Sequence record: PP216084
Length of the DNA: 64,000 nucleotides
Source: Escherichia phage vB_EcoS_HZ_ZJUN2
Direction: 5' to 3' (one strand)
A program made the position numbers and the translations under genes. The stretch's first letter is position 1, and every line of letters starts with the position of its first letter. The notes beneath the pieces were generated by a model, which was not told the origin of the DNA, ran no database searches, and saw nothing but the letters and a program-made list of their open reading frames with translations. Below, in pieces: positions 22,424-61,446 of this stretch.

Positions 22424-22450
22424 ATTTCTTCCTTATCAATTTATATAAAT

Positions 22451-22479
22451 ATTATAGCAAGTATTTAAGCATTTAGCAA
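22451..22479 (-). promoter_or_regulatory. T5-type promoter inside the ligase intergenic region (minus strand)
   Basis: Reverse complement TTGCTA - 17 bp - TATAAT followed by ATTTATATAAATT. Confidence 0.6.
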
Positions 22480-22543
22480 CTACAATTTTAATTAACTTTG
22501 CTTACCCTCGCCATAACTTTCTATCCCTCAACTGAATGATAAT

Positions 22544-24060: not shown

Positions 24061-24090
24061 TTTGCAACCCTCTCATTAATTTATATAAAT

Positions 24091-24119
24091 ATTATATAAC
24101 AAAACTGAGTTGAAAGCAA
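24091..24119 (-). promoter_or_regulatory. T5-type promoter (minus strand)
   Basis: Reverse complement TTGCTT - 17 bp - TATAAT followed by ATTTATATAAATTAATGAGAG. Confidence 0.6.
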
Positions 24120-52503: not shown

Positions 52504-52581
52504 GGTTCTCAAGCTCATATGGTATGAGCACCCAGCTCATAACTGGAAGGTACGTAGGTTCGAATCCTCGGGGAGCCACCA
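52504..52581 (+). tRNA. tRNA-Met-like (anticodon CAT)
   Basis: Acceptor GGTTCTC/GGGAGCC, D-stem GCTC/GAGC, anticodon loop CTCATAA, CCA; T-stem has only 3 clean pairs. Confidence 0.55.
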
Positions 52582-53684: not shown

Positions 53685-53714
53685 CTCCTCCGAACAGAAT
53701 TTTTAAAAATGTAC

Positions 53715-53744
53715 TTGCCTTTTGCTTTAAATTTCTGGTATAAT
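53715..53744 (+). promoter_or_regulatory. T5-type promoter
   Basis: TTGCCT - 18 bp - TATAAT followed by AGTTATATAAATTGATGAAGG. Confidence 0.6.
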
Positions 53745-53774
53745 AGTTATATAAATTGATGAAGGAGTTAACGA

Positions 53775-54511: not shown

Positions 54512-54586
54512 GCACCTTTAGCTGAGATGGATTAGCGCTTGCCTGAAGAGCTTGAAAGGTTGGATCGTTACCAACGGGGTGCACCA
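54512..54586 (+). tRNA. tRNA-Phe (anticodon GAA)
   Basis: Acceptor GCACCTT/GGGGTGC, D-stem GCTG/TAGC, anticodon loop CTGAAGA, CCA; anticodon stem has two U-U pairs, T-loop ATCGTTA is atypical. Confidence 0.55.
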
Positions 54587-56759: not shown

Positions 56760-56836
56760 CAGTGCGTAGCTCAGCTTGGTAGAGCGTCTGCTTTGGGAGC
56801 AGAATGTCGCAGGTTCGAGTCCTGCCGCACTGACCA
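56760..56836 (+). tRNA. tRNA-Pro (anticodon TGG)
   Basis: Acceptor CAGTGCG/CGCACTG, D-stem GCTC/GAGC, anticodon stem TCTGC/GCAGA, loop TTTGGGA, CCA. Confidence 0.7.
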
Positions 56837-56936
56837 AACAATTGCGGGTGGGAGGCATAGAGTTCTTCTTAGTCTCATAAGCTAAGTAAGTCCAGGGCAG
56901 TACTGGAACCCGCTACCAATTTCAAGAAAAACTCAT

Positions 56937-56965
56937 TTGCTTAATGCTTAATTTCTTGTTATAAT
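56937..56965 (+). promoter_or_regulatory. T5-type promoter driving an ORF-free ~0.3-kb leader and the Ala/Leu tRNAs
   Basis: TTGCTT - 17 bp - TATAAT followed by ATTTATATAAATTGATGCG. Confidence 0.65.
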
Positions 56966-56971
56966 ATTTAT

Positions 56972-57297
56972 ATAAATTGATGCGAAAATAGCTGCCTAGA
57001 TACCAGGTGTATGACGTCTACACTAGCAGAGCTACCGAAAAAGAGATCCTCAGGATAAACGTCGTAGCAAAATTAGTCTGGTATCCATCAATTTAGTTCA
57101 CTAAGGTATTAGCTCGACCTAGGACTGGCTGCCAAAAAGCACGATCCCTACGACTTGGGAGAAGTTCTAGATTAGTCCACTAGATTCAGCGGCAACTGAA
57201 TAGTGTATTGGGTTTGCGAGATGACGCGGTTCCTTCCGCTCGAAGCGAAGGTGCTGTAGTTACGCCGAGCTAATAGCCTTAGTAAACTAAAGAATTT
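56972..57297 (+). ncRNA. candidate non-coding RNA / structured precursor leader
   Basis: ~325 nt between promoter and tRNA-Ala with no plus-strand ORF longer than 15 codons; local hairpins such as CCTTCCGC-TCGAA-GCGAAGG. Confidence 0.3.
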
Positions 57298-57371
57298 GGG
57301 GATATAGTTTAATGGTAGAACATCTGCTTTGCACGCAGAAGACGAGGGTTCAACTCCCTCTTTCTCCACCA
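57298..57371 (+). tRNA. tRNA-Ala (anticodon TGC) with G3-U70
   Basis: Acceptor GGGGATA/TTTCTCC with the G3-U70 wobble typical of alanine tRNAs; anticodon stem TCTGC/GCAGA, loop TTTGCAC, CCA. Confidence 0.65.
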
Positions 57372-57376
57372 AATTC

Positions 57377-57461
57377 GGGGCTATGCTGGAACTGGTAGAC
57401 AATACGGCCTTAGATTCCGTAGCTTAAATGCGTGGGAGTTCGAGTCTCCCTAGCCCCACCA
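57377..57461 (+). tRNA. tRNA-Leu (anticodon TAG), long variable arm
   Basis: Acceptor GGGGCTA/TAGCCCC, D-loop AACTGGTAGA, anticodon loop CTTAGAT, 13-nt variable arm, discriminator A, CCA. Confidence 0.65.
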
Positions 57462-57585
57462 AATTTGATGGTCAGAGTAAATTAAACCTACTATCTCGGT
57501 TGAGCTGTTTTAATGGGTTCGAATCCCAGCGAGGCGTAACTGCCTGGTGTGATAGAGGCATCATTCCACTAATATTGGAAAACTA

Positions 57586-57821: not shown

Positions 57822-57912
57822 GGAAGAGCAAATCGAATTGGCGACGAAAACCGCTTGGAAAGTGGCTGACTGGTAAAACGGCTTGAGAGTTCAAATCTCT
57901 CCTCTTCCGCCA
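57822..57912 (+). tRNA. tRNA-Ser (anticodon GGA, tentative), long variable arm
   Basis: Perfect acceptor GGAAGAG/CTCTTCC, T-arm GAGAG-TTCAAAT-CTCTC, discriminator G, CCA; anticodon loop TTGGAAA closed by 4 pairs. Confidence 0.55.
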
Positions 57913-58208: not shown

Positions 58209-58215
58209 AAATTCT

Positions 58216-58346
58216 TGGAATATGCCGGAATTGGTAGACGGGACTGCCGAATAGGTTTACTAGGAACATCCACTCCTAGAAATATACCTTAAAAGCGGTT
58301 GAGTTAAATGGTCTAACTCATGAAGGTTCAAGTCCTTCTATTCCTT
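58216..58346 (+). other. ~130-nt tRNA-like element (class-II-like with large insertion, no encoded CCA)
   Basis: 5' TGGAATA pairs at 6 of 7 positions with 3' TATTCCT; D-loop-like ATTGGTAGAC; variable-arm-like hairpin TGAGTT…AACTCA; canonical T-arm GAAGG-TTCAAGT-CCTTC. Confidence 0.3.
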
Positions 58347-58575
58347 GATACATCAATGGCTCAAAGTGTAACGGTGCTATTTGATGCTCTTGGCAAGACT
58401 TCCCCGACATGCGTTCGGGAGTAAGCTGCTAAGACTAGAATAGAAGAGTTTCTGAGAGCCGCCACAATTGAAAATTCGTACTCGTCTTGAGCTGCGTGCA
58501 ATAGGAGATAACTTGATTAGTATTCTAGAACATGCTAATTGAGGAAGGTTTCGCTAACCCTGCGAGTTTTCAATT

Positions 58576-59419: not shown

Positions 59420-59494
59420 GCTCCTAAAGCATTGTTGGCGATGCAGTTGCCTTGTAAGCATCTGAGCTGGGTTCGATTCCTAGTGGGAGCACCA
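59420..59494 (+). tRNA. tRNA-Thr (anticodon TGT)
   Basis: Acceptor GCTCCTA/TGGGAGC, D-stem GCAT/ATGC, anticodon loop CTTGTAA, T-arm CTGGG-TTCGATT-CCTAG, CCA. Confidence 0.6.
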
Positions 59495-59509
59495 AATTTA
59501 AAAATTCAT

Positions 59510-59538
59510 TTGCTTTCTCTCTTATTTATTGTTATAAT
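59510..59538 (+). promoter_or_regulatory. T5-type promoter
   Basis: TTGCTT - 17 bp - TATAAT followed by ATTTACATAAATTAATGAGAGGG. Confidence 0.65.
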
Positions 59539-59568
59539 ATTTACATAAATTAATGAGAGGGAAACCAA

Positions 59569-61387: not shown

Positions 61388-61416
61388 TTGCTAAACCTCT
61401 CTTTTCTTGTTATAAT
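61388..61416 (+). promoter_or_regulatory. T5-type promoter
   Basis: TTGCTA - 17 bp - TATAAT followed by ATATTTATAAATTGATGAGAGAGG. Confidence 0.65.
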
Positions 61417-61446
61417 ATATTTATAAATTGATGAGAGAGGTTTGAA

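Follow-up and report, generated by a model that had tools for sequence, protein, structure and literature searches.

What lies between the proline and alanine tRNA genes of Escherichia phage vB_EcoS_HZ_ZJUN2 (sequence record PP216084)? The 64,000 nt of this phage that we analysed, here called the window, are the tRNA gene cluster of a T5-like phage (Demerecviridae): ARAGORN identifies 21 tRNA genes between 49.9 and 60.1 kb, all in the same orientation, and T5-like phages of the genera Tequintavirus and Epseptimavirus match the region at up to 99% identity by blastn. Positions 56966-57297 are flanked by tRNA-Pro (56760-56836) and tRNA-Ala (57298-57371). The initial annotation described them as a leader of about 330 nt with imperfect hairpins and almost no coding capacity, running from a strong promoter to tRNA-Ala, and proposed that this stretch and a similar one of about 90 nt ahead of the promoter are precursor leaders or small RNAs. 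It named covariation across relatives as a check, and conserved small reading frames or a lack of conservation as findings that would speak against the proposal.

We find that the stretch is a homologue of RNA 2H, an entity already known from GenBank annotation. The tRNA-region record of phage BF23 and the genome of phage DT57C annotate at the homologous place a promoter, a 172-nt ‘RNA 2H’ and tRNA-Ala, and label RNA 2H a “stable RNA with unknown functions”. By blastn, the RNA annotated in BF23 aligns along its whole length (172/172 nt) with window positions 57107-57278, at 96.5% identity. The surroundings agree as well, with a homologue of BF23 promoter P13b upstream, a location inside the tRNA cluster, and tRNA-Ala (57298) beginning about 19 nt past the 3’ end of the annotated RNA. 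RNA 2H of BF23, DT57C and DT571/2 (AJ604530/NC_042564; KM979354/KM979355), with its P13b-type promoter upstream and tRNA-Ala downstream, is the same gene. Unlike BF23, DT57C and T5, the window copy carries an extension of about 100 nt in its 5’ hairpin P1, and its upstream neighbours are tRNA-Pro and a tRNA-like element, where BF23 and DT57C have tRNA-Val. The stability and the ends of RNA 2H are taken here from its GenBank annotation, which in BF23 and DT57C carries no structure or family model. That annotation dates from about twenty years ago, and a search of the literature available to us on T5/BF23 stable RNAs, RNA 2H and T5 transcriptomes found nothing relevant. Relative to the sources consulted, the RNA itself is known, and the structural model and the breadth of the family are new. 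The features of the locus are collected in Table 1.

Table 1. Features of the RNA 2H locus in the window.
Feature	Coordinates	Strand	Basis
Putative degenerate 75-nt tRNA(CAU)-like gene	56844..56918	+	sequence; directly behind tRNA-Pro
T5-type early sigma-70 promoter	56918..56982	+	equivalent of BF23 ‘promoter P13b’
5’ hairpin P1, long form	56974..57094	+	alignments; fold z = -2.0
RNA 2H core domain	57094..57289	+	covariance models R1, R2: 226-232 bits; z = -4.7
Equivalent of mature 172-nt RNA 2H	57107..57278	+	blastn to BF23 feature; BF23/DT57C annotations
5’ strands of the two predicted pseudoknots	57122..57133	+	lineage-specific complementarity; shuffles; PK2 column test
Variable hairpin P3b	57145..57160	+	short form TCCC/GGGA; both sides vary in 4/4 aligned pairs
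Adjacent hairpins P4 and P5	57166..57200	+	both sides of all 5+5 pairs vary between genera
Variable 3’ arm P6	57216..57265	+	base GCG 57216-18 / CGC 57263-65
Spacer and tRNA-Ala(UGC)	57290..57371	+	8 nt between P2 and tRNA-Ala

The strong promoter that had been proposed ahead of the stretch is indeed there and shares 92% identity with P13b as annotated in BF23. It consists of TTGCTT (-35, 56937-56942), a 17-nt spacer and TATAAT (-10, 56960-56965), from which transcription would start at about 56972, some 7 nt past the -10 box. The promoter is unchanged in 11 aligned relatives, and further copies of the same promoter family occur elsewhere in the window. A generic promoter scan did not list it because its -35 box agrees with TTGACA at only 3/6 positions. 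Matches ahead of a ligase gene in Klebsiella phage Roth37 and at 1501-1574 in a Providencia phage turned out to be promoters of the same type with no copy of the RNA.

The hairpins noticed in the stretch belong to a fold that beats chance, with z = -2.6 relative to shuffles for positions 56837-57297 and z = -4.7 for the core (57093-57290). We describe the anatomy of the T5-like RNA from an alignment of 39 distinct copies (A4), in which a nearly invariant core is accompanied by three exchangeable hairpins, P1, P3b and P6. P1 is the short hairpin GATGAGGA-GAAA-TCCTCATC in T5, BF23 and DT57C. The window retains its closing pairs, AAATTGATG (56974-82) with CATCAATTT (57086-94), and a branched extension of about 100 nt (56983-57085) takes the place of the tetraloop. 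About 37 other records have this long form, and in its inner stem GATACCAG/CTGGTATC one C-G pair is exchanged for T-A, a compensatory change. We also considered that part of the core might have been duplicated to give the extension, but the local alignment score of 16 is reached by 188/500 shuffles and is not significant. Sugarlandvirus copies (see below) have no P1 hairpin. The core domain is closed by helix P2, in which 57094-57116 forms 22 basepairs with 57266-57289 and leaves a conserved bulged G at 57276. A P2 of about 22 basepairs with a bulged G in its 3’ strand (AUAGC/AUUGC) is found in all six genera described below. Across genera it is 97% paired and both sides change in 11/22 pairs; its lower half is kept in sequence, and its upper half covaries freely. 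Within the core, many Epseptimavirus and Sugarlandvirus copies have longer hairpins in place of the P3b of the window. P4 (TCTAG 57166-70 with CTAGA 57180-84) and P5 (TTCAG 57185-89 with CTGAA 57196-200) have stems that are entirely different between genera. In P6, 7/10 pairs covary within the T5-like phages, and its base occurs as GCG/CGC, GUG/CAC and GAG/CUC. P3b and P6 each exist in two to four unrelated hairpin versions, mixed in different combinations.

The RNA is present in 427 phage records (blastn), mostly without annotation, the T5 record AY587007 among them; all relatives fetched from this search belong to Tequintavirus or Epseptimavirus. For more distant homologues we use two covariance models, R1, built from 19 T5-like cores on the RNAalifold structure, and R2, which has fewer pairs, those of P2, P3b, P4, P5 and P6. 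R1 identifies full-length homologues in Klebsiella phages of the genus Sugarlandvirus (77-80 bits), in a Providencia Priunavirus (24 bits) and in Proteus phages of the genus Novosibvirus (22-26 bits). A scan of IMG/VR with a degenerate P2 pattern adds Pectobacterium phage DU_PP_V (Hongcheonvirus, Mccorquodalevirinae) at 77 bits and a second Novosibvirus-like copy; three other matches to the pattern are AT-rich coding sequence, hit by chance. R2 scores are 95-100 bits for Sugarlandvirus, 77 for Hongcheonvirus, 52 for Priunavirus and 34-41 for Novosibvirus. By blastn, about 81 records contain the Sugarlandvirus version, and 11 contain that of Priunavirus/Novosibvirus. The lack of conservation that would have spoken against the proposal is not what we observe: the RNA is conserved across six Demerecviridae genera.

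Within the T5-like phages, 99% of the alignment cells at the proposed pairs are paired, versus 26-43% with slid partners, and the covariation score is 0.19 versus at most 0.05, much of it stemming from a few swapped hairpin variants and not from many independent events. In the cross-genus alignment, which was fitted to the covariance model and is therefore biased towards the structure, 94% of the cells are paired versus 30-40% with slid partners, both sides change in 35/49 nested pairs, and the covariation score is 0.59 versus at most 0.07. The analysis across relatives suggested by the initial annotation comes out in favour of a structured RNA. An alternative centre of the core proposed by RNAalifold (CTAGGACT/AGTTCTAG plus CACTA/TAGTG) was dropped in favour of P4, P5 and the pseudoknots, for the following reasons. 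The four substitutions of phage SE7 compensate perfectly in P4 and only there, the model with P4 and P5 gives about 15-28 bits more for every distant homologue (R2 over R1), and P4 and P5 covary in full across genera. A small RNAalifold hairpin, TYG-GGTTTG-YGA, was replaced by the covarying base of P6.

The single-stranded junction behind P2 is predicted to pair with both hairpin loops, which gives two pseudoknots. In PK1, GGACT (57122-26) would pair with AGTCC in the P4 loop (57174-78), and in PK2, TGCC (57130-33) with GGCA in the P5 loop (57191-94). Every lineage has a run rich in A behind the PK2 strand (57134-38 in the window). The pseudoknot sequences vary between genus-level lineages, yet they stay complementary (Table 2), and within Sugarlandvirus PK1 undergoes a compensatory change from AGUC/GACU to AGCC/GGCU. 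The partners were initially chosen by eye, and when the junction is shuffled both pairings appear in the right order in 2-18% of the trials per lineage (p 0.02-0.18). PK2 has an independent test, because R2 does not treat its columns as pairs. Their pairing is 100%, versus 8-47% with slid partners, and two of the pairs change on both sides. For PK1, whose alignment register shifts between genera, the support is the complementarity within each lineage together with the shuffles. Taken together, these comparisons predict a conserved double-pseudoknot fold common to the six Demerecviridae genera.

Table 2. Predicted pseudoknot pairings by lineage. PK1 pairs the junction with the P4 loop; PK2 pairs the ‘GCCAA’ motif with the P5 loop.
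Lineage	PK1	PK2
T5-like	GGACU/AGUCC	UGCC/GGCA
Sugarlandvirus	AGUC/GACU and AGCC/GGCU	ACCA/UGGU
Hongcheonvirus	GAACC/GGUUC	UACCA/UGGUA
Priunavirus	AACCA/UGGUU	UGCCAA/UUGGCG
Novosibvirus	AACUA/UGGUU	CGCCAA/UUGGCG

Rfam 15 has no family match in 56837-57297, whether the cut-off is the gathering threshold or E<=10, and the Sugarlandvirus, Priunavirus, Novosibvirus and Hongcheonvirus homologues have none at E<=1. The main RNA (57094-57289) is not a tRNA or a tRNA-like RNA: ARAGORN and the Rfam tRNA clan make no call there, and its ends form a 22-bp helix with no CCA. We find no match to the RNA in 5,426 complete E. coli genomes, and none of 10 pattern matches in bacterial genome contigs passes the covariance model; on these searches we reject mimicry of a host RNA and a prophage origin. 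An exact-pattern scan of metagenome contigs returns only 5 copies, all near-identical and T5-like.

The stretch of about 90 nt ahead of the promoter, for which a GCGGGTG...CCCGC pairing had been noted, is a different matter. The pairing exists, but as the acceptor stem (GCGGGT/ACCCGC, drawn by eye) of what appears, from its sequence, to be a degenerate tRNA(CAU)-like gene and not a second leader of the same kind. This element has an anticodon arm, TTAGT-CTCATAA-GCTAA, with CAT at 56876-56878, and a T arm, TCCAG-GGCAGTA-CTGGA, whose loop GGCAGTA is non-canonical; its 3’ tail, T-ACCA, is aberrant, whereas the acceptor stem and the anticodon arm are well formed. Neither ARAGORN at default settings nor Rfam calls it, and at an 80% threshold ARAGORN reports a tRNA-Met(cat) with a different acceptor stem, aattgc/ccaatt. 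The element occurs in 67 phage records, non-T5 phages included, and is unannotated in the records examined; related copies are found in Aeromonas, Klebsiella (there annotated as tRNA-Met) and Pseudoalteromonas phages. The T5-like loci that possess it always have it next to tRNA-Pro, and its neighbour on the other side may be a promoter, an ORF or a further tRNA. The closest known counterparts are ‘RNA3’ of BF23 and DT57C and other RNAs annotated as ‘tRNA-like RNA with unknown functions’, which are also placed among tRNA genes and likewise have an acceptor-like stem, a T-arm-like hairpin and a ...TACCA end. Unlike RNA3, the window element is tRNA-sized and has a full anticodon arm with CAU, and the sequence likeness between them is confined to a short stretch containing AAGTAA. 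We found no likeness of the element to BF23 RNAIV, RNA2, RNA1, RNAI or RNAIII.

The gene order bears on whether RNA 2H is a leader. The order promoter, RNA, tRNA-Ala(UGC) is common to T5-like and Sugarlandvirus phages, and in the window tRNA-Ala(UGC), in the same orientation, is presumably co-transcribed with the RNA. In this sense the term leader holds, the stretch being the 5’ part of a transcript that runs into tRNA-Ala. Elsewhere the RNA is independent of tRNA-Ala: an ORF separates the two in bombadil, 26175IV, fuchur, phA11 and others, and in Priunavirus and Novosibvirus the RNA stands upstream of a small ORF followed by tRNA-Leu. On account of these arrangements, we describe RNA 2H as a self-contained module of the tRNA cluster and not as the leader of one tRNA. 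In T5-like phages the tRNA region has a mosaic make-up and is rich in genes for HNH and homing endonucleases next to the locus. The other term of the proposal, small RNA, fits well, given a homologue annotated in GenBank, a promoter of its own and a structure backed by strong covariation.

How the RNA may be released is suggested by P2. With 22 pairs that are 97-99% paired in the alignments, P2 has the length of about two turns (at least 20 bp) expected of an RNase III helix. The mature ends given in the databases lie opposite each other in it, at the boundary of its lower and upper halves: the 5’ end T57107 pairs with G57276 (or A57275), and the 3’ end C57278 lies 2 nt beyond, which leaves a 2-nt 3’ overhang. 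Because the annotated ends are staggered by 2 nt midway in a two-turn duplex, we propose excision by RNase III. RNase III processing stems are carried by T7 early transcripts and rRNA operons. As in P2, the flanks of a stable RNA form there a helix of about 22 bp, and the cuts are staggered with a 2-nt 3’ overhang, which for RNA 2H is implied by the annotated ends only. Conservation across genera of the sequence of the lower half and of the bulged G, as seen in P2, is not a general feature of RNase III stems.

The scheme that we propose is as follows. The primary transcript would start about 7 nt past the -10 box and contain P1, the core and then the tRNAs. P1, here with its extension, would fold first, followed by the compact domain closed by P2, in which the junction would pair with the P4 and P5 loops to form the pseudoknots while the P3b and P6 arms point outwards. 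A double-strand-specific nuclease, most likely host RNase III, would cut both strands of P2 by the bulged G, freeing a stable RNA of about 172 nt and leaving for RNase P a pre-tRNA-Ala that begins with some 19 nt of leader. During early infection the freed RNA may then act in trans by specifically binding a protein or another RNA, a role suggested by a core that six genera have kept and by peripheral arms that are swapped freely. Overall, we consider it likely that the locus is a structured noncoding RNA gene, RNA 2H, with its own early promoter, whose product would be released by RNase III and may act in trans.

Other readings of the locus have to be weighed against this one. It might code for one or more small proteins. 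The initial annotation had allowed no plus-strand ORF longer than about 15 codons, which is slightly too strong: no ATG-started frame of at least 20 aa exists on the plus strand of the stretch, but alternative starts give frames of 29 aa (57007-57096, GTG) and 21 aa (57208-57273, TTG). The minus-strand frame it mentioned is present too (57172-57402, 76 aa, TTG), and ‘hypothetical protein’ CDSs overlap the locus in Stubb, VAC35, VAC51 and SB10. We nevertheless give a coding role very little credence. The 29-aa frame sits wholly inside a block missing from most relatives and so is not conserved, the 76-aa frame runs antisense through tRNA-Ala, the annotated CDSs disagree on strand and frame between records, and substitutions are compensatory in helices and not codon-like. 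Among the aligned relatives there is no conserved ORF at the locus, so the conserved small frames that would have spoken against an RNA are absent. A DNA-level element, such as a site of recombination, of nicking or of cleavage by a homing endonuclease, or a palindrome bound by a protein, would suit a mosaic region with HNH and homing endonuclease genes alongside, the CTAG palindromes in the core, and hairpin variants that look recombinationally exchanged. It is just as hard to credit, as the G-U wobble, the bulged G and the asymmetric pseudoknots fit RNA and not DNA, the covariance model scores 232 bits on the plus strand versus 36 on the minus strand, a conserved promoter stands immediately upstream, and BF23 and DT57C annotate an RNA product.

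A more serious competitor takes the domain as a purely cis-acting leader that processes or stabilises the tRNA operon, shielding the transcript from 5’-end-dependent decay and providing an RNase III site before pre-tRNA-Ala, with the ‘stable RNA’ as a functionless by-product. Stable 5’ structures are a known principle of transcript stabilisation, and in T5-like and Sugarlandvirus phages the RNA does open the tRNA transcription unit, with 8 nt between it and tRNA-Ala; its helix is long and perfect and has the length of an RNase III substrate. On the other hand, a by-product needs no two covarying pseudoknots and junction motifs kept in six genera, and the RNA stays intact where an ORF parts it from the tRNA or a protein gene comes next; we regard this explanation as unlikely, if the least so of the rivals. 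A cis-regulatory sensor or a catalytic RNA, that is, a riboswitch-like aptamer or a self-cleaving ribozyme, seems more improbable still. Such RNAs typically have a compact pseudoknotted core with unpaired junctions that are conserved, as the A-rich and UAU-containing ones are here, and discrete annotated ends could in principle come from self-cleavage. However, no Rfam riboswitch or ribozyme matches even at E<=10, the domain is locked by the 22-bp helix in all lineages, and the annotated ends lie inside a perfect duplex, unlike the cleavage sites of known ribozymes. There is also no expression platform: no terminator-like site occurs between the core domain and tRNA-Ala, and what comes next in most lineages is a tRNA gene.

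The reading of RNA 2H that we favour is that of a released RNA that would bind in trans in the early phase of infection. Stable RNAs in phage tRNA clusters have precedents. The tRNA cluster of phage T4 contains the stable RNAs species 1 and 2 (rnaC/rnaD), of about 140 nt, which are co-transcribed and excised by host RNases; RNA 2H resembles them as a small stable RNA inside a phage tRNA cluster, but no sequence relationship between them is expected, and the T4 RNAs are not known to have a double-pseudoknot fold. Phages and prophages also have GOLLD and ROOL, noncoding RNAs of complex fold, beside their tRNA genes. At about 500-800 nt these far exceed RNA 2H in size, they come chiefly from Firmicutes and related hosts, their architecture is a different one, and their Rfam models give no match to the stretch at E<=10.

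T5-like phages are model phages and therapy candidates, and most of their genome records either show nothing at the RNA 2H locus or place spurious ‘hypothetical protein’ CDSs over it. The covariance model would allow curation of the family, for instance in Rfam, and corrected genome annotations. The analysis yields a covariation-supported structure, a covariance model spanning six genera and specific pairings to mutate, which together make the function of RNA 2H directly testable. The tRNA region of T5-like phages is a counter-defence hub, in which the T5 tRNA-Tyr counteracts retron Ec78 (bioRxiv 10.1101/2023.03.15.532788); given this location, a decoy role for RNA 2H is conceivable, as speculation. 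More tentatively than the gene itself, and as a possibility that we rate below an even chance, RNA 2H may found an uncurated class of compact, trans-acting, double-pseudoknot noncoding RNAs in at least six genera of Demerecviridae that is not in Rfam. If so, RNA 2H would be no mere processing by-product. As a decoy or sponge it could capture an RNA-binding factor of the host or a defence nuclease that attacks tRNAs, or alternatively it could bind a ligand or another RNA.

Besides RNA 2H, the phage BF23 annotation names three more RNAs whose counterparts lie in tandem directly 5' of tRNA-His (58214-58574), all of unknown function. This tandem is probably what the initial annotation had taken for a first ORF-free leader. 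The T5-type early promoter sequence found before RNA 2H recurs in copies dispersed over the window.

Several tRNA genes and tRNA-like elements come without an ARAGORN call or without annotation. The tRNA-Ser(GGA) gene falls under the Rfam score threshold despite its 100% match to the BF23 gene, and two further loci are Rfam tRNA matches. The gap without an ORF 3' of tRNA-Leu (57462-57585) carries a T-arm-like GGGTTCGAATCCC motif and may be another degenerate tRNA remnant. The degenerate tRNA(CAU)-like gene behind tRNA-Pro is annotated in none of the T5-like records examined; related copies are found in the phages Aeromonas LAh_6/8, Klebsiella KP13-16, where the copy is annotated as tRNA-Met, and Pseudoalteromonas J2-1.

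Coordinates of the RNAs, tRNA genes, promoter copies and overlapping CDSs (L-numbers are loci holding RNA 2H homologues)
Feature	Position	Strand	Basis
RNA1 ("tRNA-like")	58214-58357		BF23 annotation
RNAI	58358-58464		BF23 annotation
RNAIII	58469-58574		BF23 annotation
tRNA-Ser(GGA)	57822-57912		100% identity to BF23 gene; no ARAGORN call
tRNA locus	52504-52578		Rfam match; no ARAGORN call
tRNA locus	54512-54583		Rfam match; no ARAGORN call
Degenerate tRNA(CAU)-like gene	56844-56918		fused behind tRNA-Pro
T5-type early promoter copy	22431-22489	-	
T5-type early promoter copy	24069-24096	-	
T5-type early promoter copy	53696-53765		
T5-type early promoter copy	59494-59564		
T5-type early promoter copy	61403-61435		
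"Hypothetical protein" CDSs over RNA gene	L046:504-647, L044:372-470, L045:314-610, L039:539-637	variable	GenBank

The CDSs that overlie the RNA gene in Stubb, VAC51, VAC35 and SB10, on strands that differ between them, are probably spurious. Among the RNA 2H homologues, two metagenome copies (L031:844-1066, L033:1029-1251) have TTTC in place of the GAAA tetraloop of P1, the 5' hairpin. This is a hairpin-loop inversion that leaves the stem unbroken, and therefore the P1 loop sequence is not essential. In the Priunavirus and Novosibvirus homologues (L029:260-300, L046:480-520), directly 5' of the 5' strand of P2, the helix closing the core, there is an additional CTTTAATCAAC(T), the same sequence as the P2 3' strand. 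Either copy could thus pair with the P2 5' strand; the arrangement could form an alternative hairpin or switch, or could be left over from a duplication.
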